A program made the translations under genes and the position numbers. Below, piece by piece: positions 10,001 through 49,786 of a stretch of DNA of 64,000 bases (its first letter is position 1; the number at the start of each line of letters is the position of its first letter). Origin of the DNA: Psammoneis japonica. Its lineage: Eukaryota. The notes below the pieces were generated by a model, which was not told where the DNA came from, did no database searches, and saw only the letters and a program-made list of their open reading frames with translations. The DNA lies in assembly GCA_008632985.1 (NCBI GenBank), contig QPGO01000167.1, forward strand, positions 1 to 64,000, given 5' to 3'.

Positions 10001-11100
10001 GGGAATGGTGCTGCCAAGTTGCTCTCCTTTTAATTGAATCCCAACAGTCACAACCAAGCTTGAAGAGGGAAAGCCAGATGGGTGGGAGACAAGGAGATGC
10101 TGCCTGGGGATGCTGTGTTGACCCCCACCATCTCATCGTCTGCACAAATCTGTCGCTGAAGGCAATCTCTGCACCTGGTCAAGCCACTTGCAATGCCAGC
10201 TGCAAGTGTTCTCCAGCCAAATTGGCTGGACATTAGAGGGGGCTTGTTCTGGAGTGCCATCACATTGCTGTCTGTTGTGATGAATTCTCACACCTCACGA
10301 GCCTGTTTTTGTGAGAGTCAGGTTCATCTGCGCAGGATGTGTCTGGTCCTTTTTGACCCTTTCCCCTCATTCTTCAACCACATTGTCTTCACAATCTAAG
10401 ACATGACATTGTCCATGTTGTTTTTGGAGATCTTGGTGGTGCAACTGCATTTCTGGGCTTTGCACTTGGTGAAATGAAGAGGTGGAGGATGGTTTGGCCG
10501 GGCACCTCACCTCCTCTTGGCTGCGCGGATGCCACAAACCACTGCTGGTGCCAGGTTCCATAAAATTTGGCAGAGTCACTCAGAACCACCTCTGGGAGCT
10601 CATGTGGTGAGTGTGCTGTGATGTGTGTCCTCATTGGTTCATTGTTGTGTGTTTCGTTCCACTCGCCACATTTGCACCGCCTTGCTTGCTTGTCAGCAGT
10701 TTGCCAGCACGGAGTGTCTGTGGCTGCTGCGAGAGCCACATGACATGTGTTCTTTGACAACATTTGTTCATTTGGGGAATCAGATCCTGGAGTTTTCATT
10801 GTCTGGTTGTGGACAAATGTGGAAGATGGAGTTTGCTGCAGCAGGCGAACGTGCAATTGCGCTGTGTCTCTCGACGGCAGAGTTGGCAGCGAGCGTGTGC
10901 ACATTGTCCCATGAGCACCAAACCAGCAGATGATGTGTTTGGATTTAGATGGCTCAATGGCTGTCATTGTTTGTTAGTCTGCCAGTGTTCATTAGAGTTG
11001 CGACTGTGTTGGAGCAACATCACATCATGGTCATGCCAGGTGCGGCACGGCGGTGGCACGGGCACAATGCGGTGGCCCTTCCGGACTTCTTTTGCGTGTT
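7100..11100. other. TpA-depleted decayed block 2, grading out towards ~12.1 kb
   Basis: Same dinucleotide bias as block 1. Confidence 0.85.
9245..9905 (+). pseudogene. Heavily decayed RI-type LRR gene copy
   Basis: Colinear with ~13975-14840, including 3' flank, with many indels. The stop TAG has become CAG (GAGGAAATCTAG vs GAGGAAATCCAG). Confidence 0.8.
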
Positions 11101-16749: not shown

Positions 16750-19700
16750 ACCAAAATGCAACTCCAGCCGACTAATGTCATTCTAATAAGAAGTTCCCGA
16801 CAAGTGTTGGGGTCGCAAGTGTTAGGTTTGGTTGGCAATGGAGATGTCACCAAAAATCATCCCTCGCACTTCCACGTGCAATGAAGGCGCCCCACGAAAA
16901 GTCAGCTCCATTTCCAAACACCCAGCACCATGAACAACACGTGCCTGTCACATTCTCGCAAGACACAAGTTTAAAGAGCAGGAGACCAACAATGCTCATG
17001 CCTCGGGTGTTTTGTGGCTCTAGCAGCAGGGGTCAAAGTCCAGCCAGTTCTTCAAAAAATTTTGAGTCGAGTGGTTCATGCGGGGTTCAAGACACGTGAC
17101 TCGGGGTGCGACGAACCCTTTCTCAACAAAGAGATGGCCAATGACATCAACACAAAGCACATTTTTATGGCAAAAGTCTTCTTTAAAATTCATTGTTGAC
17201 GTTGTGACAGCTGCGTTTGACCCGTTTCATGCTTTGTTTGAATGGACGAATCAATCCATGAAAACACATTTGCAAGCCACACTTTTCCATTTTCAGAATT
17301 GACGGTTGCATCTCTGCCAACAATCTGGTGAATGTACAAGCAAGGGGGCACTTCCATTGCCTGACTTTGTTCTTCTGCAGGAGAGCATCATCAACAGGCA
17401 ACTTTTTCAACGTTGTTTGACTGCTTCGTTTGAACAGTGCGCCAACTTCACTCTGCATTTTCACTCCAAAATCCACCCCATGCCCCACCCTCTCCCACTC
17501 AAAAACACTGGCTGATTGCATTGCAGTTGCTTTGTCAAAGTCTTGAAAAATGTTCCTCTTGTCATTGGCATCGCCAAAACGGGTTTGACGATGGGACTGC
17601 AACATTGGATTTGTCGATGAGCTCACACGACGATTGACACTGTGAAAATTGGCTGCATCTGCGTGACAGTTGAGTGAGACAACAAGTGGCAAGACTTTGG
17701 CACAATGACAACACCATTTTGATTCCATGTTGCTTGCCTTCACATGTCTGCCGGCTTTTGCTCTCAGCGGGTGTCGAAAATCCGGCGAATGAGTGGTTGA
17801 TGAAGACTCGGCACATGACATGGCGTCACAAATGACTGAATCGGCATGTTTGTCAACAGCTCGCCACAAAATCAAAATCGTTGAGAGTGCATTTAGATGC
17901 CTGTCCAACAGATGCCAATTGATCATGTGCCAAATGTGCTCTTGCAGAATCGAGGGTTTAGATGGCTTTCTTGGCGTCGCAATCCTCGCCATCGTCGGCG
18001 CAAGATTTGATCAAATTCCCCATGACAGCACCGCGGCGACAGTCTGTGTGCTCATCAGGAGTGCGCCTGCCATGCCCAATTGGATTTGCTTGAGGGTTGG
18101 GACCCAAACTGTGCACTTGGTTGTGTTGGGATGCATCATTGTTTTTTTTTCGGCACAGCTCTGCCAGCCACTGGCTGCTGTCAGAGAGCACAGGACTGCA
18201 CTGCAGAGGCGAATTCATTGATGCCTGCAATCAATTCAACGAACTAAACGAGATTTTGATGCTGCACAATGTCAGGCACACTTTTTTGTGGCCAACTTGG
18301 GCAAGGTTTGCTTTCAACCGCCACACAAGCACTGGTGTCGACTCTTGTCATTTCCATGGTTGCTTCTTCTGTGCTCCTCTGTGGCCTTCCTCTTCAGCAA
18401 GGAAGGTGTCGCCCCCAAGGTGATCCACTTGGCATGGCAGCAGCACATGGATTGGGCTTTCTTCCACTGGTGTCTGAGTCACACCTGGTCTGTGAAGCAG
18501 CAATGGCTGGGCACTCTGGGCACTGCACTCACCCCTTTGGTGTGCCAGCTGCTTTTGTTTGCTGCAGCAGCAGGAAATTTTTTGTCCTGCAGGGCTTTCT
18601 CTTGACTTTTCAAACTGTTGGACCCAAGCACAAACAATGCTGCCCTGTTGACAACTCCAAAAATGTTCTTGTGGGGCCCCAGAGTGCAGCAGCCTGGAAA
18701 ATGCCAAGCATCACATGTGGTTGTCTCGCTGCACACAGATGCTCCAACTTCACCTCAGCAGTCCACAAGGGCACAATTCACAAGTGAAGTGGGAACTTGC
18801 ACTGAGTGGAAAGCAAAAAATCACAAGGAAATGGATTTCTTGATGGGGTGTTTTGGGTGGATTTCCTGGTGAATGACTGGACAAGTGTCGCAGAGCAAAG
18901 TTGGAAGAAGTCAACAACAAAAAGCAGCTGTGTTGTTTCACAATGTGTGTCTTTTGGTTTTCAAACAAGTCATGGCAAAAACCATGCTTCAAAGTTTGTG
19001 AGTTTGTGCAAATGCTCAGCTGCCCATGTCTCTGTGGGTCATGGAGCTCCAGCCAGTCAGGCGAGTCCTTCCACCCTGCGTTGGAGGATGGAGCCACATT
19101 GCAGCTCTAAAAACATCACCAGAGTGTGCTCCTTCATGTTGGTGTGCAACCACAACAAGATGGAAAGACAAACATGCAGCCAGGCACTGTCAAAAAGAGG
19201 AAGCTGCAGCCAAAAGCTGCTCAAACTGAGGCCACACACACACACAGTGTGCAACAGAGCTGCACTTTGTCTGCCATGGACAGAGCCACCATGAGACCAA
19301 CCTGTTGTCATGCACCACAAGTTGGGTGGTTTCTTTTCTCTGTGTCATTTGAGAAAACAAGAATGGCGACATTTGTTTGCCACACACAACATCAAATGGT
19401 TTTGCAGAGCAACAATGGGCACAAACTCCTTGCTTTGCTTCCAAGAACCTCTGTGACAAAGAGAAAGTGTGGCTTGTTTGGCTTGGCCAACACAGCCACA
19501 AGCCCAAGTTTGCTGCTAAAAAACTGCTGCAAATGCTGTCATTCTCTCTGCAGCCAGCAGTGAAGGCATGTCAATTTGCAGCTTCACAAACATGTTTCAC
19601 ATGGTGGGAAAACAGAACAAATTCACAGCATCTGGGAGGGGCTGAGACATTGCTGCATGCCAGAAATGAGAGCAAGTCTTGTTGACTTGGAAACTGATGT

Positions 19701-20350
19701 CCACAGCCAAGAAGCAAAAAAAAACTCAAGTGCGCCAGACTGTGAATGAATTCAAGGCAAAAAATGGAGGGAGGAGGATTGGAGCTGCAACACTGGGCAG
19801 CCATGACTTTGATGTTGTGACAATCATCACATGGGTGCCATTGCACCCGCAGAAGACTTCAATGGAGGGGCAGTGTGGAAGACTTGGAAGCTTGTTTCCA
19901 GCTGTGGTGTGGCGCTGGGCACCAGCAGCGCAGAGTGTGGCACATCAGCAGCTGCCAGTGTGTGCCCCTGGAATGACAGCCAGCTGCTCAAGCACCATGC
20001 CACAGGGTTGTGATGACTTGGAGGTCTTGAAACTGAGTGTGCAACAAAGACATTGCAAAAGAAAAAGCATGCTCAGCCTGTTGGGGCATTGCACCAGCGC
20101 TCTTCTTCTTCCCTGTGTGCTCCAGAAACCTGGCTCCACCACATCAACACAATTCAAGCAAAGCTGGTGCCAGCAAGACAATCCAGCACCAATTTTTTTT
20201 TTTTTTACGACAGACTTCATTTTTGCCATCATTCATTTTGCTTTTCCTTGAGCAGTGTTGTTGAGCGTCAGATCAAGAACTCTCCTCTTTTCTTGCACTC
20301 TCGGCCTGACTTTGCCCGAACAAACCAAAGTTGAGTGAGTTCATCAACAA
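16750..20350. other. TpA-depleted decayed block 3
   Basis: Same dinucleotide bias. Contains retroelement relics. Confidence 0.85.
18150..18870 (+). mobile_element. Relic reverse transcriptase of a non-LTR retrotransposon (CRE/SLACS-like)
   Basis: Across frameshifts: IDACNQFNELN..LML.NVRH..WPT.ARFAFN and FLFSKEGVA/QGDPLGMAA(A)HGLGFLPL, matching DA.NAFN and EG..QGDPL.M..Y.LG.LP RT motifs. Confidence 0.7.
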
Positions 20351-20662
20351 ATTTGTTCTTTTGAGTGGAAGCAGCAGCTGCAGTCACACTCATGATGTTA
20401 ATTGCTCTTCTATCAGGCTCACTCTTTATGGTCATTGCACTCAAAACAACGCGATGAATGCGCTCTCGCTTGTCCGTCGATGCGGTTCATCCCACCGCGA
20501 CCAAGTTCTCGTGTCATTCGTGCATCTCAATAAGTTCAAAATCCTGGTGCCGCAAGGAAACCGCAAAGAACACACGCTGTGTGACCGTGGAAAAATCAGA
20601 TGTTCATTTTACATGCATGCTAACAAAAATTATGTAAAACGGTAAGTTAACAAAGGCCGTCG

Positions 20663-31303: not shown

Positions 31304-34300
31304 CTATCTTCTCTTGCGCTTGCCATGGCGAACAACGGTTGACATTTGCTCCACCGCCGCTCGTCTATTCTTTTTGGTATAACTCTTGCCATCAAGAGGT
31401 ACATAGGCATATGGCTCGTACTTTTGATCCTTTCTCTTGACGTCACCACCAGCCTTTTTCGACTTGTAAGCCGCGCCCAGCGCTTTTGGTTCTTGTTTCT
31501 TCTTTTTCTTTTCGTCTCGCGCCGCCTTGGCGCTCTCGTACTTGCTCAAGCGTCGCTTTTTGCCACCAAATTTGATTTCGGCGTTTTCTTCCTGGTCCTC
31601 GTCGTCGTAATCACCCATGGCATTGTTGTCTTTGCTATCATCGTCATCATCAGGGACAACGAGACGTCCCTCGTCATCAAATTCCATGACACCTAGACTA
31701 TCATCATCGTCATCACTATCGGCATCTTGCTCAGCAAAATGAACGCTCTTTGCCATTTTAGGATCCAACATATCCATGACATCACCATCCTCTGTCTCGA
31801 CACGCAACTGCGCTTGCGGCAACTTCTTGGAAACAGAAGCTCTACTTCTTTTGGTAGACGTGGCGGCACTCTTGTCTCCCACAATTGTACCACCCCGGGT
31901 GGCAGCCGCACCCCGCAAGCTCCTGCCGGTTCGACCCGTCATGGCCGTAAAGCCCGTAGCACCCGTCATGAGGGTTCTGCCATCGTCCGAATCTTCCTCG
32001 TCGGATTCCATCATGTCATCGTATGCCACATCACCACCAACACCTCCGGTTTCTTTTCGTCGTTTGGCTCGTTCGTCCAATTTGCGCATGTGCGTCAACA
32101 ACCGGGCATTGTCGTCGGGAACAAGAGGCAAGAGTTTGTCGTAGCCAAAGGTTCTGACAAGCTTTTTGAGAATGATTTTAATCTTGGCACGGAACCGATC
32201 CTTGCCACGACCATACTTTAACATGCCCGTCATGAGTTCGGGCAAGAGCGGCTCGAGCTGTTGCGGTGTCATGGCGGCGACACTGACACGGACAAAGCCA
32301 ATGACGCTCTTGAGTACTTCACGACAATTCTCATCAAAGAGCACCAAAATGGTTTGCAACAGCGACGGGACGAGTGCTTGGACACGCATGTCGTTCCGGG
32401 CATACTCAAAGACCAAGCGAGAGGATGCCATGACGGCGGCCGATCTCATGTGGGGTGTTTCGGCACCGAGTGCGGCCAAAATGATTTTAAAGTACTCAAC
32501 AATGTCGTCGTCGTAAAGGGCAGCCATGGATATCAAGAGCTGATAGGCAGCTTCGCGCGTCTTGCCATTGGAATCCTTGAGACACAACAACACCTCACCG
32601 ACAATTTTGGATATGAGTGTCTAGCCAAAAGCAACGGGGGAATAGCACTGCGTAAGTCTATCGTACAGCTCAAAAACAATTACGCATAATATATACTTTG
32701 TTTCAACAATCTCACCTTGTGTTTTGGGTTGGAGTAATTCAAATTCTCCACAATACACGTAATACATTTGAGTCGCATATGCCGCGCCGAGATTTGGCAC
32801 GTCATGATGGAACCCGTCAAGAGTTCAATCATGCCATCCAAATGATCTTCCGACGTGACAAAGCTGGGATAGTGGACGCAAACCTCGGCCATGCACTTGT
32901 AGGCTCGCTTTTGGACACGAGCTTCCCATTCATCACTGCGACAGAGTGGTTTCAGTGTTCGGTACAAGAGAGCAACGGAATCATGGTGGAGCGATTCGGA
33001 AACCACCAGCGCTTGCGCCAATCCCAACAGCGTACAAATCTTTTCATCCTGGTTCGATTGGGTTGCCAGCAAGAGACGTTGCATAATTTTGGAAAAGAGT
33101 TTTTGAAGAAACTCTTTTGGTGCCAACCGCGCCAGAGCGGCAATGGCTTGGGTGACACTCTGGGCACGTTGGGAAACCAAAAACGACTGGTTCTTGTCTG
33201 CTGTAGTAGATGTTTCCATGGCATCGTCGTCGTTCGTCGCCTTGGTGCTTGTTCCGTGCAACGTCTCGACAAGTTTAAACAAGGCTGGCAACGTCTTGAC
33301 GGATACTTGCTGCATGACTGCCAGATCCTGTTCGTGATTTGATTCTTCTCCTCCTTCGATAGTATCTTGGCGGTCCAAGACACCCGAAACGAGCATCTTG
33401 AGTCCACCGCATATCGTTGTCTGTAGGGTGTATTGAATAAATTGCAAAAGATATAAGACAACACGATAACATTACAGCCCGACGACGACACATATTGTAT
33501 ACAACATATTATATACTCACAATGAGTTGAGGATATCGATTGTGATCTCCCAAGGCCTTGATGAAGGTTTGCGAAAGCGACGGCATGCACGTGGCCAAAT
33601 CGGGTGGAGAAGGTCCTTGACAAATCACTGGCAACAGCATCCACAAATCCACCACACGCGCCTTGTAATAATGCTGTTTTGACTTTTGTTGCGAGGACAG
33701 TACATCACAACGTCGGGCAAGTGGTAAAATTGTTTCCTGAAAGAATGCCAATGGCTGTGGCTGTTCAAAATGGCATTCTCGTAGTAACACCAAGATCCAA
33801 TCCTTTTTTTTGTTATTTGGTTTCCAATCCAACCAAGGCCAAGCGGTCGTTAAACCAATACCTTGAATCAACATTTTAAGACCGTCATCGACGTGCATAG
33901 AGGAGGACGAGTTGGACAGTAGGGATGTTCTCAAATCCACAAAACTCGTCGTGACGTGTTGGCACTGCGACGAGGATGATGCGTCATCCAAAAGAGAATA
34001 ATGCTGCAACACCATAATGACAAGTGGTGTCAACGTTACCGACCAAGTGGAACGGTACGAATGCAACAAAATGGGTCCGTGCATGTTCGTAATGCACGTT
34101 TCCAAACACTTGAGTCTTTCTTCTTGTAGACTATCCGTTCTTTTTTCAGCATTGCCAAGTGCAGTACTTCGCAACAAGAAAGTCAATTCCACCATGACAT
34201 CTTGTGCCACCACCGCCATGTCGTCATGTGAGTAGTTTTTCAAGAGAATCAAAATACGAGACAATGCCACGGGAAACAGCTTGTATCCAATTTGTTCTTG

Positions 34301-35494
34301 TTCTTGTTGTTGTGATTGCAACAATCGTGTACAAGACGTCAAGAGAATCTTGCTGTACAAGATTGTGGCTTCAGCAGAAGAAGAATCCTTCATCATCACG
34401 TTGTTATTGCTTTGCAACAAACTCGCCAAGACGGCATCATAGTTGGTACAATCGGAATGAGACACGCACGTATACAAGACTTGCAAAAGATGTGTACAAA
34501 GATGTGTGCGATACTCGTTTTGTTTCTTCTTGGTCGTTGCCGTCACGTCGACAAACATGGAATTATTGTTGTTATCGTTTTCTTGTTGTTGTTGCTGCAA
34601 CAAAAGCAGTTTGGTTACGGCCGTACCAAAGGCATTGACATCCAAATATGGGACAATTTGATTCAAGAATTGCAAATCGTGCAACACCTTGGCATTGTTG
34701 TCATTTTGATTGGTTTCGTCGTCGTCCAACAACAGTACGGCATTCGTGTAGTTCGAGACGGTTTGTTGAACAACTCGAGTCACAACAACGACATCATCTT
34801 GTTGCGGTTGTTGTTGCAATAGCACTACGACACATTCTTGTGCGTGCTTTCGTACCTTTGGTTTGACATCACGACACAAATGCAATAGCGTATATTGAAG
34901 CAAGTTTTGAACTTGTTGTTCTTCTTGTCGTTTAGAGAGTGATGATGATGATGATGTATTGAGTTTTTGCAACAAATCCATCGATACATCACAGACGGCA
35001 CGCAACGTGGCATTGGGACCAATCGTATTCTTGTTTTGTTGTTTTTGTTGTTTTTGTTTTTTCGTAGGACTACCAGAATGTTCCATCCCTTCCAGTGTTG
35101 CCATGATTTTGACAGTCGCCTTGCATAGACGTACCATCCAACCCATGGTCGTCCATAACGTTGGAATGGAAACGTAGGGAAGAACGTATTGCATCAAATC
35201 CAAAAACGCCACGAGCGTAGTACATGATATTTCGTCTTGTTCTTCTTGTTGTTTCACCAATGATCCTTCCATGGCGGCCAAGATATTGGTATACACGGTT
35301 GCAGCCAAGACTGCATCGTCTTCTTCTTCTTGATTATTATTTACCAGTAGCTCCTTCATGGCGGCTGCCACGGCACCGAGTCGCAACGAACGAGGATTGT
35401 TCTTTTTCTTCTTGGAGGATTCAATCAAATCATCAAGAACTTGAACAAAATTGTCGGAAGAATCATCATCATTATTGTGTTGATCCGTCCGCAT
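31304..35494 (-). CDS. RRP12: RRP12-like ribosome biogenesis protein (NUC173/HEAT); exons 35494..33521, 33420..32716, 32620..31304
   Basis: D.KPKVRK.AQ, LAFFQE.ILPLA, LW.LLP.IC..P.D, RVQKRAYK, EVLLCLKD.N.KTR, and C-terminal YKSKKAGGDVKR..KYEPYAYVPL. Both introns keep the frame. Confidence 0.9.
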
Positions 35495-37853
35495 GATGCT
35501 GTTGCAATGTTGATCTTGAGAGAGTAGTAGTAGTAACAAGTTGTGTTGCTTTATTTTTTCTCAACAGCAATCGACTTGTTCTTGTTGTTGGTCCTTTTTT
35601 TGTTTGTTTGTTTGCGATGAAGTGAGAGCCGACGAGTGGCTGTCAGGCATGACGGCTAGCGGACGGACATGATTTTCGAAAATTCAATCCAAAACCTTTT
35701 TGGGAATCTTTCTGGAAGGAACCATGTTCGGCGGCATTTAGGCTGACAACCCCAATCAAGCATCATCATGCTCTGTCGTCACAAAAGAGCCGAAAAATTT
35801 GTCAATGCAAGTGCCTTGGATTGAAAGCCAACCATTGCACTCTTTTGACCAACAAGGCGCCAGCGTCGCTGCTGTTTCCGGGCCAATGTGCAAACAGCAC
35901 TTGCGAGACTGTGTGACAAGCTCAGAACTGCTCGAGTTTGCCTGGCCATGTCATGGAAAAGATTCAGCCTCCACACCCTTTTTTGCTTTGCGCAAAGGGA
36001 AGCAGAGCAAGAACACACATCTGAGATCCACCAAGCTCCCCTTGCAAAACAACATGAAGGAGCTTTCTTTTCCTCCTCACATCCTGTGCAAACTCAGCTG
36101 CAAAGCATGCTTCATCTTTTGTGCTTCCTTGTGAGGTCTCACTTTGCAAGCAACAAGTGCATCAAAAGGGAGGGCTGCGTGTGCAGGTTGGCCAGTCAAT
36201 TGCACCCAATGTGACATTTTTAGAAATGTGCACTCACACACATTTAACTTCATGACTGAAGGTGGTGCAAATCTGTTTGAGACCAGATTTGAGATCCTCT
36301 CGCCGAGTGGACCGCCCCAACCTGAACTTTCAAATGGATTTGTGCCACCTTTGGTGATGGAGACATTTGATGTTCTTTTTTGTCGCAGTGTGAGATCATT
36401 GCAAGATTGCCATGATGTCACCAATGCAGCAGCAGCAACAGCGCGGTTTCTGCGCACAGGCAGCAAGAGCACCAATCTCATCACCGTTGGCTCCTCCATG
36501 TTTGACAGAGTTGGGACAAGGCTGAGACTGGCTGCAGCACTGCAAGTCTCATCACACAACTTTGCAAAATTTCATCTCCCAGTGCTGTGTTGTCCATGCT
36601 TGATTTACAATGCTCTTGGCAGCTTGTTGGCAACTTGCAGGTGCAGTCTGTCCTCTTGTTTAGAAGTGGCTGTCTCTGAACATGCATGCATTGCATTCTG
36701 CTGTTGACCTGAGCTTGTGATGCTGCCAAATCATTTCTTGTTTGCTTGCATTTTTGTGTGCCATCTGTCCAACAGCAGCAATGAGGACTGCTCTTGGGTC
36801 TCCATTTCAGTTCAAGACAAAAAAATTGCACCTGGTTTTGTCAAAATTCATCTTCCGGCACGTTTGGTCATTGCTTCCACCTGAAAGCCACAGCACCTCA
36901 CACATCTGGATTGGCGCCAACTTCATTTCAACACTTTCACCTCTTGCTTTTTTCTTGCATCTCCAACATGCTGCCATGGGTGGGTTGAGAGAATGTTGGG
37001 GATCGAGCTCGGGGCTGCATCATTTGGGTTCCTCCAGTGTGGGCCAGTGCATTGTTGCAACCTGACAACCATTTTTGGACATGCCAAAAAGCTTTTTGCA
37101 CACTGCTGCCTTCTTCTTCAAGTGTGGCAGCTGCAACCCAAGGAGGATTTGCCATTGAAGATTTCATTAAAAAATCTGGAGGCAGGGCAGAATGTCTTTG
37201 CAAGGATTGGCACAGAGGGCAAGTGTGCTGCATCTCAAATGCAAGCACTTTGTTGCCAGGCTGTTGGAGAATCCGTGCAAACTCAAAAAGGGGGGAACGT
37301 GTGGCATGAACAGATTCAATGCTGGCTGGTTTGTGGTGCTTGGATTTGTTGGCATGATCAAAAAGAAAAGTCAGCAACAGGGGAGACCACTGGTGTGAGC
37401 CAACTGGAAATGAGCACGTGGTGCAATGTGCAGCAACAAGTTCGTCAGCAGAAGCATTTGGCAAGATGTCATGCTCACTCACACCCCATGTGAGAAAAGG
37501 CTCTGTGGGCTTGAGAGAGCCTTGGAAGATGCCACACAATGGCGCGGCACACTCACATCTCACATCACATGATTTGCATTCATTGCCAATAAAAAAGGGA
37601 CAACATGTGCTGCTTGTTTTTTTAAAAGTTCACCTGCCACATCAATCTCAGTTTCTGAATGTGAAACATTGAAAATCAGGCGCGTTTGTCTCTCACAGTG
37701 CCTTGTTGCCATCATGCAGGATTGAATTTGCTTGATGCAAACATTAAAAACAGGCACTCTTTCATGCTGGTGGTGCAGATTTAAATGGCTTTATTCATTT
37801 CTGTTTGCATCATCTCATGTCCCACAGTGCTGTTTGTGGAAAGTGCCCCAGAG

Positions 37854-38129
37854 TGACAGAAATTGAAGGCAAATGGCAAGAATTCAAACAACAACTCCTT
37901 GCTGCTGTCTAAATGGCAGATGAGTCTCCGCTCAGAGACTGTTGCAGGAGCCGAAAGATGTGTGAGTCGGCACAATCGGGCCACTGTTGTCATTCTTGTG
38001 AGCCTTGTGGCTCGAAAGCAAACTGCATCGCGTGCGAACGCGCGGAACTGAAGCACACAAAACTGTGCGCGGCAAACTAAACAGCGCGCAACATTTTGCG
38101 CGCACCCAAATCCTGTTCAAATCCTGTCA
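37854..38129 (-). repeat. 3' LTR
   Basis: 276 bp, preceded on the minus strand by the purine tract GGGGAG (38130..38135). Confidence 0.95.
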
Positions 38130-41100
38130 CTCCCCAGTTTGCTTGAGGAGTCACAGAAACAGATTTGACTTCGGATGAAATGAAGTTCCAGAACATGAGG
38201 GGGCGGAGAAGGTCCCAGATTTGGGAGCAACCCCAATGCTTGCTGAGGATGTCAGCAGGGTTGCGGGAGCCTTTGATGAAGTGGAGCTCAAGGCAACCAG
38301 AGGCAATTGCCTCACGCACACGGTGGAACGACAGTGCGGTGTGTCGCTTGTGTAACTTGGAGTGCGGGATGGTGGCACTGTCTACAACCGACTTGTTGTC
38401 ACCGAACATGTAACTGACATTACGGATCGGGACGCCAAGGTGGTGCAGGGTGATGCGCAGGTCAACAATCTGCTCGACACAAGTCCTTGCGGCAACAAAT
38501 TCAGACCCACAGGTTGCAGTCTCCACGGTGGCTTGCTTCTTAGAGAACCAATCAGCCGGGAATTTGTTGAGGAAGTGGAGCATTCCCATGACAGAGCGTC
38601 CGGTGAGCATGCAATGGCACAAGTTTGCATCGATGCAGTGGGTGGCAGTGACGAACTTGCCAAGGGGCGGTGGAGCGTCCTTCGGGATCATCTCTTCTGC
38701 TTCGCCGTACACGGAATGCATCCATTCACAGGCCGGAGCAGGGAGATCCGAGTGGTCGGGCTCTTCCGTGCGAACGCGGAGAGCACCGTGTCGCATCTTG
38801 GAGAGGTGCCCACAGACGCGTTTGGCATGATCCAAGTGGCCTTGACGGGGCGCAGCTCGGAAGCTAGAGAGTGACATGACGGCCGTGGCAATGTCAATTC
38901 GACCAAGGGACACTGCCCATTGGAGTGAACCAACAAGAGACTGGAACTTGTGAATGCCATCGGGTCCCAGCAGTTCGGAAGTGTCCAGTTCGGGGTGGTC
39001 ACCCTTCTCCAGAGGTGACAGGGCGTTGGTGGTGGGTTTCTCCCCAAACAGTCGGGCGCAGCTGTCAACCATGCGCTCGATGTACTTGCGCGGAGACAGG
39101 CACAAGGTTCCGTCGGGATCCCGGGAAAAGTCGCAACCCAGATGGAACTCAATGGGTCCCGCACCCTTGAGCTTGAACTTGTGCTTTTCCGTGAGAGCAT
39201 CGACGAAAGATTGAGGGTCCTTCATGGCAATGGCGAGGTCATCCACATAAACGGCAATGCATTCATGGTGGTCGCCGTTCCTGCGCATCCAAATGTCGGG
39301 TTAGGCGCGGCAGGGGAAGAAGCCTTCAGCTCGCAGGCAGTCGGCGAAGCGCTCATGCCAGCGGAGACCGGAGCTGTGCAGTCCGCACAGGGCCTTGTGG
39401 ATGACAAGGATGTGTCCTTCGAGTTTGCCAAATTCGGGTCCGACTGCAATGTAAAGCTTCTCCTTGGTGGTGGCTTCAAGGCAGGCATTGCCAATGTCGG
39501 TGGCCCATGTCTCCAACTCGTTGAGTTCGGCCAGGAAAATCATCAGCCGAAGGCCACGGAGGGAGACCACTCCGGAGCAGACACTGTCGATGGGTACGTC
39601 CGTGAGGTGCCCGTCGGCTACGAGTCGTGCCTTGTGGCGACCGTCGTGTTTCACGTCGCACACCAGGTGCACTCGGATCTTCTTGTGTCCCGCAGGAGGA
39701 GTGGAAGACTCGAAGGGCCCGCAGTCATGGAAGACTTCATGTTCGTCGAGTTGGTCCATCTCGAGATTAGTTGCGTCTCCCCATTTGCGGTTGCCGTTGC
39801 ATTTGTCTGGTGACATGGCATGCTTGCAGTTCCGGGGAACTTCGCACCCGCATTTGCAGCGAGGTGCAGTGTGGAAGGAGCGAAGCTTGGCTTGGTTGGC
39901 CATGCGAAATGGCTTCTTTTGGCGCCTCGCGATGGTGCGGAACCGCTTCCAGCCATCCGTGTTGAGGAGTCCGTTCTCTCATGCATAGATGGCGCAGGTG
40001 ACGGGGTCGTCCTTGGCGATGATGGCAAGAGGCTCGGACGTGATCTCCCCACTTTCCCATTCAAGCATGATGTTGTAGCTTGAGCCTTTCCAGGTTGGGT
40101 CGTGAGGCTTCAGAGGTCCTTCGTGTGACACGATGCGTCGAAATTTCCAAATGGTGGTGTCTTCGTCTTCTTGCTCAATGTGATTCATGATGTCATTGCA
40201 GGCAAGGACTTCCTCGCATTCGTCGTTGTTGACAGAGCAGACGAACTTGGTGAGCTCGGGATTGCCGTTCACTTTCCATTTGTGGTCTTCGACGGCCTTG
40301 ACGATGCGAGCTCTGTGGCGTTGTCCGTCCTCTTGTGGCTGCATGAGGAAGGTGCGTCCAATGATGTCTTGTGGATCGAAAACTGGCATCTTGGGTGTCC
40401 TGATCTCCCCATCAGGAGAATCGACGGGGTTGTCATCATGGCGAGATTTGATGTTGGGTTCAGGCAGGAAGGTGCGTCCAATGATGTCTTGCGGATCAAA
40501 AACTGGCATCTTGGGTGTCCTGATCTCCCCATCAGGAGAATCGACGGGGTTGTCGTCATGGCGAGATTTGATGATGGGTTCAGGTGGCTCCCCATCAGGA
40601 GGATCAAGACGTGGGTTTCGAACGGCAGGATCGGTGGTGGCGGAGCGGACGTTGGACCGGCAGAGGATCTTCTGGGTCTCGTCAGAGAGAATCTTGAAGG
40701 TCATCTGGTGGCCGACGTGCTCAGCAATGCCAACGAAGCGTCCACGCAACTCACGGGATTCGGACGGCCAATCGGAGTCATCGAGGTGGAAGTGCATGGG
40801 TTCCCACCAGTGAAAGCGAAGCAATGGGCTGATGTCCGGGGTGGAGCCAGTGAGAGTCTCGAGGGGCGTGCGCCAGTGGAGACGTGGGGACGCTGCATGG
40901 TTGAGTGTGAAGCACACACACATGAGCGCCAGCAGCCATGTGTGGGCGGGCGAACCAAAACGATCCATGACAGTGTTCGCCATGCGCTTCACGGTCTGGC
41001 ATCGACGCTTGGCACAGTTTTGGTGTTGCTGGTGAGGCTCACTTTGCCAGCTGGAGATGAAGAGGGCCCGCAGGATCCCGAGCACTTTGTTGCTGATCTC

Positions 41101-43866
41101 AACTTGAGCACGGTCGCCAATGAGTTTGGATGGGGTGCCACGCTCACGGATCTGATCCTCGAGTGTGTTGACAAACTCTTTGTCCGTCTTGGTGCTGCAG
41201 ACGTCAGCGACGGTAGACTCGGTGCCAACAAACAGTTGGGCACTGGTGCAACCAGAGTCGACGGCCGGGGTGTCGGCACAAACGGTGTCAGTGGCGACAG
41301 GCTCGTTGCGGCGGTGCACATTAAGGGTGGGGTTGGGTGATTTGCAGGCCTTCCTAAGGTGTGCACCGGCGGGCATGCGGGCGCACTGCATGGTGCAGTC
41401 AAAAGTGCGACGGACCACATCGGCAGGCAGGAAGCCAAAGTGAGGCCGAAGAGACTCGAAGGGCGGGTCCTTGGGCTGTACAGTGCACTCCGGGGGTGGG
41501 ACGTCATCGTCCTTGGGGTCAATTGCGTGTAGATGACACTCGCAGAACACGTTGTCGTCCGGAATGAGGTGATCATTGAGGGCGGACGCGTGATCGGCAG
41601 ACAAGGAAGCAGACATGATGGTCTCGTTGACAATGACACGATGACGGCAGTTGCCGCATTCGTCAAACAGGTTGGCAGTGGGATCGTCCTGCAGGTCAGA
41701 GATCGCGTCGCACCACTGGTCGTCGTCAGCGACAGAGTGATCGAGGATGGAAGGATCCCATGTGCCATCACCGGTGAGGATGACATGGGGCAGGGTGTCC
41801 CATTCGGCGTCAGTGCAAGGTCGCATGGCAACACAAGGCAGGCCGGCCTTGATGTCAATGGGGATGACACAGCCATCAGGAGTGGCAACACGTTGCAAGC
41901 CGTTGGGCACCTTGACAGAGCGATCGTTGACATCCTGTTTGTGCCATTCGAGCTGGCCGCAGGAATGGATGGTCTTGCCCTTTCCCGTGCATGCGCACTG
42001 ATGGAGGATGGCGATGACGGGACCACGCTGGGTCTCAATGACGGCACCAGCGGTGACAATGGGGATGTCCACCATTTGATGGTCGTCAATGCCCTGAACG
42101 TCAACTTGGCGAGAGGTGCGTGCAATGACGTGAACGTCGTCGCCAGCAATGCCACCGTTGGCCCCACGATCGACTGGAGTGCCAGTGCGTGTGGAGCGAT
42201 GAGCAGAGGCAGAGCAAATGACATTGTGGTTGTTGATGCGGCGGCAAGTGCGGCCGTTAAGTTCCATGTCATCGGCAGAAGCTGGCGGGGTAGAGGGGGC
42301 GACGGATGGCCCCGGTCGACTGGCATTGGGGGCTTGGTTAGGAGACAACAGATGGTGCAGATCACCGGGTGGCAGTGGCTTGCGCTTGGTGAGGTGCACC
42401 AGGATGGGATCATCCGAAGTGGCACCCACATTTGGAGCGGAGTCACCAGAGTCAGCAGGAGTCGTGTTGGACAAGTTGACATCACCGTCACTCCCAAGGC
42501 GTTGGTCGTGAAGGTTGGCCGTAACGGACTCATGGCAGTTGCTGTCTCGCGGGTTGCGGGGAGGCGGACGAGAATGCTCAAGGATGATCGCCTTGGAGGA
42601 ATGGGGCAATGAATCCCAAATCCGTTGGTGGTCGGGAGGGAGACGTTTCCATTGGTCACCGGCGAGGCTGGGACCACGGGTGTGGGCAGCATTGGCCTGA
42701 AGGACGTCAATGTCACTGTCAATGTCACAGAACACATCGTCGGACGGTTCCTCGGAGCAGACGTCGTGTGCGCACATGGCGCGGCGGGGAGCTCGAGGTG
42801 TTGTCTTGGGTTGAAACGCACTGTCGCATTGGGCTGCTGCGGAGAGGAGCAAGCCACAGCATTGATCGCATGTGAGGCTCTTGCCACTCTGCGTACGATG
42901 CTGATCAGCTTGGCTCTTGACAGCATGGAGTTCCTCGACAGGGTGCACGGCATTCTCGAGCATGACGCGCTTCTGTCCTTCAGAGAAGTGGTCACTGGCC
43001 GGGATGAGTGCCTCGCACTTGCGCAACTGGTCTTGCCAATGAAGGATGAACCCGTGGGTCGGACCTTTCCAAGTGCCATCACCAAGACGTGCGGTGGCAA
43101 GGTACGTCAGCAGGGTGGAGGACTCGACAGATGCGCGGGTGGAGGCGAGCGCGCACTCAGACAAGGCGCGGCAGATGGTCTGTGCATCAGAAGACCCCAC
43201 ATTTTCGCGGATGAGAGCCTTGCCCTTGTCGGTGAGAAGGATGCGTTCGAAGACGGCGAACACGCACTTTTGCTGTTCAGCAAAGAGCAGTTTGTCTTCG
43301 GGGCTGGTCGGTTTGTACGACGAGTCTAGAATGCACTCGACGTCTTGGGCACGGGCTTGTGCCACAAGTGAGGTGTGCCAAGTGTGCCACTGCTTGTCAG
43401 ATTTGAGAGCCGTGAAAGCGGTGGGATCACGCTTGATGCCTCGCTTGAAGTCCCGCACCGGGTCGCGTGCCTTGGTCGGGTTGGTGACATGCGGAGGTGC
43501 GAGGGGTGAGCTGCCAATGGACACAGAAGACATGCAGTCGGGGCTGAGGCGGCAGGCAAGGAACTCGTCATGCGTGAACAACGAGAAGTCATTGGCAACG
43601 TCAAGACCTTTGTGTGCTTTGACAATGTACAGACTGGCTAGAGCTGCTGACATGTTCTCACAACCACGGGGCAAAGGGATCACATTAGTGCCGTTGTCGC
43701 ACTCAAGCGAGTCGATTTGGGATGGTGTGAATGCGAATGGTTCTTGATGCGAGTCCGTGCCATCTTGTGCCAAAGCCAAACTGAGAGGGCTCCAAGCACC
43801 TTGGGCAAGCACGGTTCCAACAACATGCTCGAAACCATCGGTTTGTTGCTGACGAGTGAGAACCAT
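38077..43866 (-). pseudogene. gag-pol polyprotein, one frame with two premature stops (39979..39981, 39301..39303)
   Basis: Protease VDRGANGG; integrase TDTV..D, DRAQ, QSEPHQQHQN; RT HKARLVA, YVDDL; RNase H DANL, SEFVA, GDNKSV, NPADILSK. The three track ORFs share one frame. Confidence 0.93.
40346..40585. repeat. 120-bp in-frame tandem duplication in the IN-RT linker
   Basis: IKSRHDDNPVDSPDGEIRTPKMPVFDPQDIIGRTFL occurs twice. Confidence 0.92.
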
Positions 43867-44789
43867 GGTGGACAAAAGTGGTGTCAGGACAAGCAATTCT
43901 TGTTGGGAAGCGAAGGCAGACTTGAAGCTTGGGTGAGAGCAGACTTGACTTGAAACAGACTTGACTTGAAATCTTGAACTGTCTTGAAATCAGAAGTCGC
44001 CGGGCTTTGCTGTCCCGTTCGTTGTCAAGTGCCAAACTTCCCATCCGGTCCGCAGAATTGTGCCGGCACGTCCGAACCCGCAGCCAGCGGCGCTTTGGGT
44101 TGCTTGCGAGCAGAGCAGCGGGTTGTAAACCCCTGCAGGTGAGCTGACCAGAGGTGGACAAGACCCCCGAACCGTTCTTGTTTTATGTCGGTTGGATTTC
44201 CCGATCAGGCTGGCCAGTTGACGCAGGCGTTGGGCGCTGTGGACGAACGAACAAACGCGGGGAAAGCACCCTCGCCCCAACGTGGGCTGCAATCACGGCT
44301 GCTTGCTCTCACAGTCGTCCTCGTGGACCTGGCAGAACTGCAGAGCACCAGCAGTCCGGGGTAGATCAGGTGCAATGGACTCGGTGTGCTTGTAGAGTGG
44401 CAGCAAAACCGCAGTCCGAAGAGTGGGTGCAGGTTCTTGGCCGTGAAGACATGCACACATGCACATGTCTTCAGCGACGAAGATCCTTGAACATGTGGGG
44501 TTCTTGACCGTTGACCGATGAGCAGGTGCATCAAGGGATGAGGATCAAGGACAGACTTGGACATGACCGTTGAATGCATGTCTTCAGTGACCAAAGGCAG
44601 CACAATCAATCCAGATGTCCAGCGGCAAGGAGACTTGACGGTGACGTTAACTTCCTGCCGATGCCCTGGCATTGAATGTGCGCAGACTTGCCCGTGCATG
44701 TAGAACACATGCGGAGGTCCACGCAGAATTGAAGTGGCATCGTTGGTAAATCAACGACGACGATGGCGGTTGCTCAATGGGTTGACAAT

Positions 44790-44806
44790 GAGCAAGACTG
44801 TTAATC
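44790..44806 (-). promoter_or_regulatory. Putative primer-binding site
   Basis: GATTAACAGTC directly abuts the 5' LTR. Its complement GACTGTTAATC resembles a tRNA-Asn(GTT) anticodon arm. Confidence 0.6.
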
Positions 44807-45082
44807 TGACAGAAATTGAAGGCAAATGGCAAGAATTCAAACAACAACTCCTCACTGCTGTCTAAATGGCAGATGAGTCTCCGCTCAGAGACCGTTGCAG
44901 GAGCCGAAAGACGTGTGAGTCGGTACAATCGGGCTACTGTCATCATTCTTGTGAGCCTTGTGGCTCGAAAGCAAACTACATCGCGCGCGAACGCGCGGAA
45001 CTGAAGCACACAAAACTGTGCGCGGTAAACTAAACAGCGCGCGACATTTCGCGCGCACCTAAATCCTGTTCAAATCCTGTCA
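44807..45082 (-). repeat. 5' LTR
   Basis: 276 bp, colinear with the 3' LTR without indels. Confidence 0.95.
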
Positions 45083-46959
45083 CAGAGCATGACCTGGCAT
45101 GCTGGTGGTCCTGGCAACAGGAGCCAATCCTCAAAATGTCATTGCAGGGTGTTTTTGGTGCAAGCAACCAGTCAACCTGCCCTCTGTGCAGTTTCCACAG
45201 GTTCAAAAACAAAGAGAATGTCAGCAAGGTCATGACTGTGAAGGCCAAGATGATGATGAGTGTTGGCACACAGATGAGTGCACAGGAGGGAGGGGTGAGA
45301 CAGATGGGGAGGAGGAGGTTGACAATTTAGAGGCTGTCACCCCCATCCCAGTCAAATTACAACCTTCCTGACTTCCATGTTTCCAAGGAAGAAATTCTTG
45401 TTTGTTTGTTGGAGCTGGTGCAGTTGAACACTGCAAACAGCCAGTTGCCTTCTGACACACACAGATGGTGTGAAGTGGCAAGGCAAAGACTTGCAGATTC
45501 AGAATGAATTGTTGGAGACCAGGGGGGTGGCATTGGAAGGATGCTCCAAATGCTGCAAAACCTGATCACAGAGACAATGATCAATTGAAATGGCAAGTGC
45601 CTCTGTCTTTTTTTTAGTTGGCGTCATTCTGAGATTGTGGTGGCATCTTGACCTGCGGATCTCGACTTTTTCCAAGAACAACCGGACAACTGCGCACTGC
45701 ACAAACACAAATCGACAATTCGCAAAACATTGCAGACTGCAAAAGAAACACATGAATGCTCACAAACAAAATGCAGTCACTGCTGAAATGACAATTGTTG
45801 CTGGGTGTGAACTCTGCTTTGTGCCGCCACAAAAGGTGCCACTGTAGAGTCCGCCTTGACTGTCGTCAGGTGATGCACAACAGACCGATGCATTGCAATT
45901 GTGCTCTCCAGTGTGACCAAATTGGCCGCTTCTTCTTCTTCTCAATGAGACACTTGATGTTGCAAAAGAATGAGTGCAGATGTCATCTGTCCAGTCAATG
46001 GAACAGTCTGACGTGGCGGAACATGAAACTTTTCCAGTTGAGCTGCCATCTTCAAGAACAATTTCAACAGATCTCGAATCGCATTTTCTGGCACACTCTA
46101 AGAGGGTGCTGCCAACGGCCTCCCCACAGCAGATGAGGTCACCCTCCATTGGTTCTCCAGCCGGTGGATCTTCCAATTCATTCCACATTTTCGAAAAACA
46201 ATGAGGCAAGGCAAGTTTGTGAAGCTGTGTGCGATTCAAGCAGCTCATCTGCGGTGCTTGTCAAGCATGTGATGAACAACAATGCAAGAGGAGATGCGTC
46301 ACACGACTTGCCTCACCGCAGCTTTTTTCAAGCTCACAAGTGATCTGGTCGGATTGTTGCAAGCTGCAAAACAAGTCTCCCTGGTGTTCACCATGCTGCC
46401 GCAACAATTTGCAGTGACGCCACATCCAATTGGCTCATGTGTGTTGGCATCAAATGGACCAAGCAGGTGAACATGGCCTTTGTTCACTTGGGTGTGATGG
46501 CAAACATCTCCTGGAAAGGTCACCATGTTGCCAGCCACCTTTGCCACTTGCTCAAAATCTTTCTGGCTGGCTGATGCAGAACAGCCTCAGCTTCTTTGAC
46601 ACTGCCACGCACTTTTGGATGTGATGCATGCTGTTGTTGAATTGTGTCGACTTCTCTGTTTTCACAGCCACAATTGCATTAAAAAAACCTTTGCTTTTGT
46701 TGACTCAGGTTGACATGCTGTGCAGTGTGCAGTGCTGCACCCGACACAGCTTGCCATGTCATGCAAGAAACCCTCCCCAGATGTTGGGAGATGATCTTGT
46801 GCGGCGCAACTGGTGGGAAAATTCACTTGCCATGCAAAAGGCCAAAGCAGAAGACCACAACATGTGAGCAATGAAATGTGTGAAGCAACTGACATTTTCA
46901 ACATGCCTGTCCATTGCAGCGACTCTGTTGAGAGACAAGCGACCCCACAATGAAACCCT

Positions 46960-47615
46960 TGTTAAAGCAAATTGCACTGTGCAGTGCGTTTTGAATTCCT
47001 TGACAAGTTTTTCAATTGCCTCCAGAGACATTGCATCTTGATTGATCTCTTGAGAGATGTCAGGCTGTGAAAGAACCATGCAAGCACCACAAATGTGCCA
47101 TTGAGCACGTTGAGAAAACTTGCAGATTCTCTTGGTGGCAAGCACATTGGCGCAGACAATGACTCTCGCACCCCCTCTTCTTGTTCTTCTACCAACAAGG
47201 TTCCTTCCATGGTGGTCAAGACATTGGCACACACAGTTGCAGCCAAGACTGCATCTTCTTCTTGATTTACCAACAGCTCCTTCATGGCAGCTGCCACGGC
47301 ACCGAGTCGCAATGAACAAGGATTGTTCTTTTTGTTCTTGGAGGATTCAATCAAATCATCAAAAACTTGAGAAAAAAAACTGTCGGAAGAATCACCATCA
47401 TTGTGTGGATCCACCCACATGCTGTTTTTGTCACTGACAGCTTTGGTGACAACTTGTGTGCCGCACAATGGAGAGTCTTAATTTGGCACAATTGACAGAG
47501 TGTCAGTTTGTTTCTCAACAGCAAATGTGAAATGGTTTTGTTGGTCTTCATTTTTTTGTTGCGAGAGCACCAACAAGTGGCTGTCAGAAATGGTGGATGG
47601 CTGACTGACATGATC
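46960..47615 (-). pseudogene. Decayed duplicate of the RRP12 5' end and upstream region
   Basis: DDLIESSK.KKNNP.SLRLGAVAAAMKELLVN..EEDAVLAATV matches ~35230-35495. Upstream motifs match ~35555-35672. Confidence 0.9.
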
Positions 47616-49786
47616 ATCAAAATTTCAGTGCAAACCTGTGGGTCCAGAGGACATGTTGCGGCAGGCCCCACATTTGTCAGGTGGTTTGAAACAACAACAC
47701 AACATGAAACAGTGCACACTGTGCATCCTTTGGGGAGCATTGGCCACTGTCTCTCATTGAGTCTCCGATCTGCACCAAAAGTTCTTTTGTTGCTCATCAA
47801 AGAAGACAGAGGTGGGAAGGAATTCCCACAGAAAACAACAGCAAGATGACAAGTCAGTCGACCTCCCCCACCTCCTTCTCCTTGGGGCAGGAGTGTTGAA
47901 AGAGTTGCTTCAAAGCACTCAAGCAGCAAGAGCAGATGAAGCAGTTGCACCTTGTGAGACTGGTCGTGTCTTTCAACAACAAACCAAAGGGCAGCAAGCT
48001 GGGGACTGGGGACAAAAAAAAGCTGCAAACACCCAAATGAGACTGAACTTCATCTCACATCTGTCTTGGTGGTGTTTCTGGATGAGAACACTGCAAACAA
48101 CTTCATTGCAGATGTTCACAGCCATGTTGCCAGCCAAATCACCTGGTGCGGCTCTTTTCAACAAAAAAGACTGCTGTGCTTTGACAGATCCCTTTGGTCC
48201 AAAACATCTTGTCCTTGAAACCCACTGCAAGCACAGCGAACAAGACAGGGAGAGGCGCCACTCAACTCACCTGTTTGGGGTGTTGAGTTGCATTCCATTG
48301 ATGCCTCCTCTGTCATGTCATTCTGCACTTTCAATGACACTGTGTGCAAACATCAGAAAATTGAGGAGCGCAATGCATGTTTGCTCAATGCATGCCCAAG
48401 GGCGCACATGTTTTCCCAAAGGCAAAATGTCACGGCACTTCTTGCGAATGGTTGGACAAAGAAAAATTCAACCACAGGCTTGCTCTGAGGAGTGGAGATG
48501 GCCACCAGCAAGTCAACGGCACAGGCAAGGGGGGCAAGGTGAGAAGGCAAAGACACATCCCATGGTCTTGTTGTTTGTCAGCTGACTGGCATGACCCCAA
48601 CTCAGCTCAATGGTGCTGGCTTTCAAAAGATCGATGTCCGTCTCTGGCACACTGGTGTGAAAAATGTTGCTGAAGTCTGGCAGCCTGTTCCACCCAACCA
48701 CACAACACTGCACAGTGAGGGTGAGCTTTGCTGCTTCAATGTTGTTTTCTCTTCTGTGAAACACAGCAAGAAAGAAAATTGCTCTTTTGGACACATGGGA
48801 CAAATCAACAAAGTCAGCAGCCATGCATGAAGTCATGCAGTGTTTGCTGCACTGATGACTTTTTGAGCAAAAAGGAAAATGCCCCACATGCTTTTGTTCC
48901 ATGCTGTGCAGCACACAAGTTGCCCATGTGCTGGCATCATTTGTGCCACTTGTTGTTGTTTTGGCTGTGCATTTTCAGAGGCAGGTTGTGGGCACATTTT
49001 GCCTCTTCAACCTGATGGGGCAGCAGCACCCTGCTGCAACAACAACAGGCCCTCCCCAAGCTCTGCATTATTTCCTGTCACAACAAAGTGCCAAATGGGG
49101 TTGATGTGCATGACTGATGGATGGTGGCTGCAGCAGCATCAGGGTCGGGTCATGTGCGGCAACCTCCCACAACAAGGGAGGTCTGTGGGTGTGGTGGCAG
49201 TGCCCCGCATGCCAAAGAAAGAGATGTGGTGAGACACTGAACAGGCCTCAAGATTGACTTTTGGGGACCATCACATGGTGTTTTGAAAAAAAAAAAAAAT
49301 TGATTGGTGCAGCAGTGCCCAGTTGTTGGGGCTTGGCCCTCTGTCGTGCTTCACTGCTTGTGGTTGGCCGGCTGTGCATTCTGTGCCTGGCCAGCATGGC
49401 CCTGGCTTGCCAGAGAGCACTCTTAACCCTGGCATTGCTGGCTCCAGCATGCCACGCTGTTCAGAGCTTGAAACCTCCAGAGCACTGGAGTGTTGGCATT
49501 GTGCGAATGAGGTTGTGGGCAGCAATCCAATCTCTCTCTCTGAAAGGTTAAATGCAACCACTGAGATTGTGTCTAAAAGGTGCAACTAAAAAATGCCATT
49601 CCCAACATTCTGCTTGAAGCAGACAGTCAGTTGTGATCATTTTCTTCGCACCCTTCTGTGCAGTGTGTGACAAATCTGCGCATGCACAACTGCTAGATTC
49701 TCTACATAAGACTCTCCACATGTCACAATCATGGCAGTAGATGTCAGATTGTGTTACCGGTATCTAGAGCTCAACTACCCAGAGGT

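Follow-up and report, generated by a model that had tools for sequence, protein, structure and literature searches.

Repeat-induced point mutation (RIP) in filamentous ascomycetes changes CpA to TpA, lowers the GC content and mutates both copies of a repeat, and its criteria include methyltransferases of the RID/DIM-2 type and a premeiotic stage. APOBEC editing leaves plus-strand G-to-A changes in GG and GA contexts during reverse transcription. Deaminases of the TadA/ADAT2 and ADAR kinds make A-to-G changes in RNA. The natural site of TadA reads U-A-C, trypanosome ADAT2/3 is able to deaminate C in DNA too, and mRNA editing in the fungal sexual stage prefers a 5' U. In dinoflagellates, 5-hydroxymethyluracil favours TpA. 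Methylated CpG decays to TpG and CpA, a process that leaves TpA alone.

We analysed a window of 64,000 nucleotides from Psammoneis japonica (contig QPGO01000167.1 of assembly GCA_008632985.1), in which a domain depleted of TA and CG holds a copy of the 5' end of an RRP12-like gene. On the one hand, the depleted blocks of the window resemble the products of RIP, showing transition-only hypermutation in confined stretches, sharp compositional blocks, wrecked mobile-element genes and damage to host-gene duplicates too. On the other hand, they differ from them in that TpA is erased, A:T-to-G:C change is a main component and GC is unaltered; C-to-T change at CpA that makes TpA and lowers GC is not what we found, as TA stands at 7% of normal. 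Also in contrast to RIP, the DNA affected here is present in single copy, and its partner has been spared rather than mutated along with it (none of the 15 TA/CG bases of the copy differs from the gene, whose composition is normal). The CG half of the pattern matches the decay of methylated CpG, with low CG rho and a compensating TG/CA excess in the domain, but the loss of TpA is faster and its borders are partly different. As in APOBEC3-type editing, host-driven hypermutation appears fossilised in an LTR element; unlike in such editing, the main signal is at TpA and C-to-T change is bound to CpG instead of occurring in TC and CC independently of it (37 of 49 G-to-A events lie in CpG). The A-to-G events, with a 5' T in 20 of 36 and a 3' A in 2 of 36, are similar to those of TadA/ADAT2 and ADAR enzymes, but these act on RNA, whereas the changes described here are chromosomal and follow integration.

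The TpA-erasing process appears to be undescribed, while the CG half is ordinary. Our literature search on TpA loss in silent DNA, with subscription journals outside its scope, found no description, which does not prove absence. Look-ups of the terms dinucleotide, deamination, RIP, point mutation and hypermutation in PMC2806351 and 10.1101/2025.10.24.684338 gave no occurrence. Passages of 10.64898/2026.05.21.726589 deal with ApT adenine methylation and not with mutation.

Results

The RRP12-like gene and its partial copy

The features of the window are collected in Table 1. The RRP12-like gene matches HEAT_RRP12_N (PF25772) in Pfam with an E value of 9e-15 and has 140 homologues at E<=1e-3, the best of which spans residues ~13-659; two of the top homologues bear the source-given name 'ribosomal RNA-processing protein 12'. 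With an N-terminal HEAT domain and orthologues aligned from the N-terminus, its predicted product satisfies what is expected of RRP12.

Table 1. Positions of the features discussed in the text, numbered along the window.
Feature	Position	Strand	Remarks	Basis
RRP12-like gene, first long exon	33509..35494	(-)	ATG at 35494	ORFs, translation, Pfam HEAT_RRP12_N
RRP12-like gene, continuing open frames	32680-33447, 31304-32593			ORFs
Source segment R	35241..35736	(-)	~242 bp upstream DNA and first ~86 codons of the RRP12-like gene	
TA/CG-depleted domain with R'	35740..49500		unique parts 35740-37853, 45084-49500	dinucleotide counts
Ty1/copia LTR retrotransposon, nested in the domain	37854..45083	(-)	LTRs 37854-38130, 44807-45083	
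Copy R'	47176..47663	(-)	fragment of the 5' end of RRP12 with upstream DNA; oriented like the gene	
Depleted block B1	1590..4200			dinucleotide counts
Fragments homologous to 50683-51074	1540-2148		left edge of B1, starting 50 bp outside the block	
Depleted block B2	7160..10950		holds a 1873-bp TA-free run	
LRR gene family fragment in B2	9247-9919		family also at 13816-14796 and 49787-50860	
Depleted block B3	17184..20400			dinucleotide counts

An earlier note on this DNA had claimed that a copy of the RRP12 5' end with upstream DNA lies ~12 kb from the gene, inside the depleted block, and both blastn and local alignment confirm it. In blastn, 35241-35504 matches 47176-47430 with 81.9% identity over 270 columns (E 3e-70), and there is a weaker upstream match between 35554-35693 and 47508-47634. 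Local alignment extends the homology to the whole of R and R', which are ~82% identical. The two reading frames share 55 of 86 residues in BLASTP (E 4e-34), and the match stops at gene residue 86. The copy had been placed at 46960..47615, where its left edge lay ~215 bp too far out and its right edge ~48 bp short; homology to the RRP12 gene region is not detectable in 46960-47175. The three pairs of gene and copy strings that had been quoted were all found as written in the local alignment. R and R' are direct repeats, with ~4.2 kb between them before the copia insertion, and no further homology was seen in their flanks, even with a purine/pyrimidine alphabet.

Base changes between gene and copy

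The composition of R is normal, with 14 TA and 22 CG in 496 bp, and R' holds 3 TA and 7 CG in 488 bp. Gene and copy differ by 77 mismatches over 451 ungapped columns. Tabulated by dinucleotide, the substitutions show the enrichment at TA and CG that had been expected: transitions affect 17 of the 61 gene bases in TA or CG and 17 of the 390 elsewhere (Fisher OR 8.5, p 8e-8). In the core of the alignment the corresponding values are 11 of 34 and 8 of 215 (p 2e-6), and of the 28 core mismatches, 9 are transversions, 11 belong to the TA/CG type and the remaining 8 are transitions of other kinds. Among the aligned gene dinucleotides, 8 of 9 TA (4 to CA, 1 to TG) and 14 of 20 CG (8 to CA, 4 to TG) are altered in the copy, as are 2 of 33 CA.

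These changes run in one direction. Wherever the two sequences differ as TA/CG against CA/TG, the TA/CG is on the gene side (17:0 over the whole alignment), and the same asymmetry appears in the confident parts of the alignment, the core (11:0) and the upstream match (3:0). Together with the normal composition of the gene region, this upholds the claim that the source gene keeps its TA and CG. The copy's own TA/CG bases show no difference from the gene (0/15). The sparing of the homologous partner is supported by the composition and by this count, the latter being a test of little power.

Direction of change judged by outgroups

As outgroups we used 25 distant RRP12 proteins (~24-36% identical), with synonymous and upstream sites lying outside their reach. 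An exhaustive search for a close RRP12 outgroup gave a best identity of 34% overall and 53% over short C-terminal pieces, and a word-based search among longer proteins gave one distant match only; accordingly, the outgroups are all distant. At Y68 (gene TAT, copy Cys TGT), all 25 outgroups have Y. At R35 (gene CGT, copy Cys TGT), 19 of 25 have R and none has Cys. Both sites mark the copy as derived. The same holds weakly for A74 (gene GCC after a C, copy Thr ACC after a C), where 16 of 25 have A and 9 of 25 have T. T69 (gene ACC after a T, copy Ala GCC after a T) goes the other way, since A is found in 25 of 25 and the copy thus shares the outgroup state; this would reflect either a convergent hit or a post-duplication change on the gene's side. 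The copy also agrees with the outgroup majority at A73 and S78, neither of which is a change of the TA/CG type. The agreement at T69, A73 and S78 indicates that the gene lineage changed too, so the polarity assigned to one or more of the TA-type differences may be wrong. As a whole, the protein comparison appears net supportive of a derived copy, although it is not clean.

Composition of the depleted blocks

From per-kb dinucleotide ratios, the depleted blocks have TA rho 0.00-0.13, CG rho 0.07-0.45 and CA/TG rho near 1.9. The block around R' has TA rho 0.00-0.10 and CG rho 0.18-0.40 and contains a TA-free run of 1590 bp (47479-49069), compared with 190 bp for the longest TA-free gap in the normal parts of the window; the domain begins 3 bp past the end of R. 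Normal DNA (34,905 bp) holds, per kb, 39.2 TA, 56.8 CG, 72.3 CA and 76.4 TG (sum 244.7), and the five unique block parts hold 1.9-4.7 TA, 12-21 CG, 106-120 CA and 110-124 TG (sum 243-259). The base composition of the blocks is that of normal DNA, with GC unaltered. This constancy of both the YpR sum and the base composition is as expected if TA and CG became CA/TG by transitions.

The loss of TA and CG in block copies extends beyond R'. Five further alignments of normal or part-depleted copies with block copies, covering fragments of the LRR gene family and DNA upstream of one LRR member, have TA/CG lost in the block in ratios of 12:1, 6:0, 16:0, 11:1 and 14:0 (59:2), the third and the fifth using one common block copy. 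Besides R', two host-like fragments in other blocks show this asymmetry. The claim that sequence other than transposable elements is hit gains support, as regards sequence of host-gene origin within a domain, from these fragments and from the single-copy depth of the block. We abandoned a three-copy polarisation of the LRR family because the block copy is too diverged (~72%) and its context labels are unreliable; few ancestral TA/CG were inferable there, with 2 of 2 TA and 7 of 7 CG lost in the block copy.

A self-comparison in the purine/pyrimidine alphabet gave 32 matches above a reversed-sequence control, none of them new, and even in this alphabet the blocks have no detectable homology to one another except for one internal inverted repeat in B1. 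That repeat (1779-2024 and 2900-3143) is 246 bp long and 92.7% identical; both arms are TA-free and differ mainly as CG against CA/TG; they may represent the termini of a foldback or terminal-inverted-repeat element. None of the 46 stop-free frames of >=110 aa from the unique blocks matched a Pfam domain at E<=0.01, and likewise none of eight longer block frames. For remnants of copia outside the element, tblastn with five copia polyproteins gave nothing with E below 0.5.

Two processes and their sequence context

Relative to normal density, the unique blocks keep 7% of their TA and 28% of their CG. Moreover, TA is gone and CG is normal in the border windows 35751-36000 (0 TA, 9 CG) and 3751-4250, and the reverse is seen at 49501-49750 (7 TA, 3 CG). 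We read the loss of TpA and the loss of CpG as two overlapping processes, whose borders and rates are partly unlike.

With strands collapsed, the NTAN density of the blocks relative to normal is 0.57 for TTAA, 0.41 for CTAA and 0 to 0.05 for all others, and a simple rule covering all TpA leaves the survival of TTAA and CTAA unexplained. For NCGN the corresponding values are 1.0 for GCGC, 0.45 for CCGC and 0.13 for ACGA. With each event written as a purine change and read from normal to block copy, the 36 A-to-G events have as 5' neighbour T in 20, A in 10, G in 5 and C in 1, and as 3' neighbour T in 13, C in 12, G in 9 and A in 2. The 5' neighbour is C in 37 of the 49 G-to-A events, which places these within CpG. 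A strand bias is not consistent: Tyr-to-Cys and Tyr-to-His replacements stand at 24:7 in the copia element, the unique blocks hold nearly as much CA as TG, and in a related metagenome locus (L068), with its translation read by eye, the two replacements are roughly equal. As evidence on strand-coordinated action on a single strand, the counts are too small and mutually contradictory.

The nested Ty1/copia element

The element nested in the domain has TG..CA ends, a 5-bp target duplication CAGAG (37849-37853 and 45083-45087), LTRs that are 95% identical and a Pfam RVT_2 domain, and a single tblastn match covers residues 1-1834 of an 1845-aa RVT_2 homologue. With the integrase placed before the reverse transcriptase, as judged by eye from the translation, it can be classed as Ty1/copia. 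It is TA-poor (6.8/kb, ~17% of normal density), and its CG is 67.5/kb (rho ~0.86).

Of the 277 LTR positions, 14 differ between the two LTRs, in each case by a transition. Ten of these differences set TA/CG against CA/TG, with the CA/TG in the left LTR every time (10:0); the left LTR lost 5 of 7 TA and 5 of 22 CG. The LTRs of one element are identical at integration; accordingly, the ten directional differences arose in the chromosome.

The coding sequence has been affected at its tyrosines. Among 46 tyrosines conserved in >=70% of 40 full-length copia homologues, 8 are kept in the element, and the others are replaced by Cys (24), His (7), Phe (5), Ile (1) and Trp (1); in every other class of conserved residue, 75-100% are retained. 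The integrase-bearing frame by itself gives the same tyrosine result as the whole element. Tyr makes up 0.4% and Cys 3.5% of that frame, against 3.8% and 1.0% in the homologues, and the 1305-aa integrase-bearing frame has no Pfam match. One polyprotein frame is still alignable, with a single stop at a conserved position despite the loss of most tyrosines; it survives because TA-free DNA cannot make TAA or TAG. The element also has an internal tandem duplication of 120 bp at 40346-40584.

A set of 80 related copia loci from metagenomes includes several that are poor in CG alone (L013, L046, L053 and L072, rho 0.22-0.24). L068 is the sole TA-free locus (TA rho 0.02, 3 TA in 2766 bp; CG rho 0.44), and its tyrosines are replaced by both His and Cys; L055 is intermediate (TA rho 0.31). 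Since its DNA shares no more than 66% identity with that of the window's element, L068 constitutes a separate, independent case of TpA erasure. The make-up of a database protein (P0260) is likewise poor in Tyr and rich in Cys and His.

Comparison with a public read set

We compared 44700-50700 of the window with one public run, hereafter X1, which is possibly the source sample of the window. Contigs of X1 contain 82% of the sampled words from 45100-49600. The block at 45102-49500 has a depth of ~56, against 57.5 in the normal flank, and the LTR at 44807-45083 has a summed depth of ~280,000-374,000 over 2508 contigs. These depths indicate that the LTR family is very abundant and that the block is single-copy at >=90% likeness. 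All listed variants among the LTR copies in X1 are transitions, including CA/TG doublets at 44941/2 and 45045-7. Just to the left of R', at 46911-47111, the depth is ~293 as against 56, and left of the RRP12 fragment, at 46837-47045, three contigs skip 71-96 bases; from the raised depth and the skipping contigs, a short dispersed repeat may adjoin R'.

X1 and the window differ at 23 positions in 45133-49070, all by transitions, and no differing position falls in 49071-50700. Of the 23 differences, 18 are on the axis between TA/CG and CA/TG, two TG-against-CA doublets among them. In detail, CA/TG of the window corresponds to CG in X1 at 8 positions and to TA at 2, CG of the window to CA/TG at 3, and TA of the window to TG at 1; the TG/CA doublets at 46309/10 and 47438/9 correspond to the opposite doublet (4 positions), and 5 positions are other transitions. 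Such doublets would be expected where a single ancestral TA or CG had been hit twice independently. X1 and the window are also separated by indels of one base, several of them T or A, and some of the 23 differences could be assembly errors and not variation between strains or alleles. Whatever the cause of the 23 differences, the depletion itself is reproduced in X1.

Discussion

We consider, with a probability of roughly 0.7, that R' arose by duplication of part of the RRP12 5' end, came to lie in a silent domain and was rewritten in place by CpG decay together with a separate TpA mutator. The duplication, the direction of change, its restriction to the domain, the action in place and the sequence context are established by the comparisons above. 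The conversion is directional and transition-only, it is bounded by the domain and not by homology, and it acts after integration. Sequence of host-gene origin and sequence of the mobile element are hit alike, and the working RRP12 gene, whose homology to the copy ends 3 bp from the border, is spared. The RRP12 fragment is what shows that the domain, and not the mobile element, is the target.

As to the mechanism, the multi-kilobase domains would be silent, methylated chromatin. In one process, CpG, presumably methylated, would decay in the ordinary way to TpG/CpA. In the other, a faster and separate mutator would change TpA to TpG/CpA; regarded as A-to-G, this change would favour a 5' T and disfavour a 3' A. 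The TpA step would be an enzymatic base conversion on DNA. Our first guess for it is deamination of adenine on DNA by a TadA/ADAT2-like or other deaminase, and an alternative may be TET/JBP-type oxidation of thymine with mispairing of 5-formyluracil. The simplest chemistry for a TpA mutator would be adenine deamination on DNA with a preference for T-A-(not A). That the host and at least one metagenome host have such a chromatin-domain-targeted DNA mutator, changing TpA to TpG/CpA in silenced DNA whatever its origin and independently of CpG decay, is a proposal that we hold tentatively, at slightly below even odds.

Editing of RNA in place of DNA has to be weighed against this reading. The affected sequences could be retro-copies of transcripts hyper-edited before integration by A-to-I conversion of the ADAR/ADAT kind, which prefers a 5' U, and by C-to-U conversion, with chromosomal DNA not acted on. 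The order of 5' neighbours of the A-to-G events, T>A>G>C, resembles the preferences of RNA adenosine deaminases, and an LTR element replicates via RNA, its 24:7 ratio of Tyr-to-Cys to Tyr-to-His corresponding to A-to-G on the sense strand. The element also lost TA without loss of CG, and R', which stops inside exon 1, could start near a transcription start. However, changes made before integration would leave LTRs and alleles in agreement, and they do not agree: 10 such changes separate the two LTRs, which were alike when the element integrated, and one locus differs by like changes between the window and X1 (23 transitions). Moreover, a single sharp-bordered domain spans the element with its intact target duplication and both flanks, CA and TG occur at similar density in the unique blocks, and no remnant of a reverse transcriptase was found in these (0 of 46 frames with a Pfam match, and no copia match). 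Accordingly, we regard RNA editing as unlikely. A foreign or selected origin of the blocks, by which they would be DNA avoiding TA and CG (for example viral DNA, or avoidance of a nuclease or sensor) and not mutated host DNA, seems less probable still. It would fit blocks that lack recognisable domains and, save for the inverted repeat of B1, detectable mutual homology, but host-gene fragments in three blocks show the same directional changes, the replacement of Tyr by Cys or His harms the element's own polyprotein, and the YpR total and base composition are those of normal host DNA.

The two remaining explanations have very little probability. If the polarity were reversed, the gene would have gained TA and CG, for instance by a RIP-like change of CpA to TpA, and the block copy would be ancestral. 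The comparison of gene and copy by itself cannot orient the changes, and the copy's state at T69 is common to all 25 outgroups; nevertheless, the outgroups carry the gene state at Y68 (25/25) and R35 (19/25), the gene region equals the window's other genes in TA/CG density and the copy resembles its extreme surroundings, the neighbouring element has lost 38 of 46 conserved tyrosines, and the YpR mass balance holds, so that a reversed polarity is largely refuted. An artefact, in which modified heterochromatin bases were miscalled in a long-read assembly and TA and CG are still present in the DNA, is equally improbable. The single-base T/A indels against X1 and the 8 sites with CA/TG in the window and CG in X1 would fit errors at methylated CpG, but X1 reproduces the block at ~99.5% identity, with TA near-absent likewise, and over 4 kb it adds 2 TA and removes 1, and adds 8 CG and removes 3. 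In addition, miscalling of the palindromic TA and CG on both strands should yield mixed calls and not clean CA/TG, and the unrelated metagenome contig L068 is in the same state.

If rewriting in place by a TpA mutator is correct, it would be the first natural genome-defence system that works by A:T-to-G:C editing of chromosomal DNA. Such a mutator, if real, would add a second chemistry to the directed hypermutation known from silent DNA, one that mirrors RIP at TpA, and would imply that an enzyme exists in nature which edits the adenine (or thymine) of double-stranded chromosomal DNA in a defined context. There are also practical consequences. DNA that is free of TA contains no TAA or TAG, and therefore shows long false open frames in all six frames. 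The change of Tyr codons to Cys and His blinds domain searches, as with the 1305-aa integrase-bearing frame. Dating by LTR divergence gives inflated values, since the 14 differences between the LTRs are without exception transitions, 10 of them of the TA/CG-loss type.

Further observations in the window

Besides the genes treated above, those of the window include LRR_6 proteins and a weak DUF6824 match. Together with the ammonium-transporter copies and the copia-type element, they suggest a eukaryote of the diatoms or other stramenopiles. At the right border of the big block, 49787-50860 holds an apparently intact LRR_6 gene with a 275-bp TA-free stretch (50138-50413); CG is low around 50251-50750, and the depletion may extend into the gene. 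A tandem duplication of ~960 bp (10529-12447) is 94.7% identical between its units, and since a TA/CG-poor stretch is equally placed in both, the duplication seems to postdate the depletion. At 60299-61439, a 129-bp tandem repeat of 8.8 copies (92% matches) lies in an 840-aa open frame that has no Pfam match. Three copies of an ammonium-transporter gene, at 22144-24029, 25709-27433 and 62579-63987, are 76-80% identical in DNA, and their TA and CG are normal.
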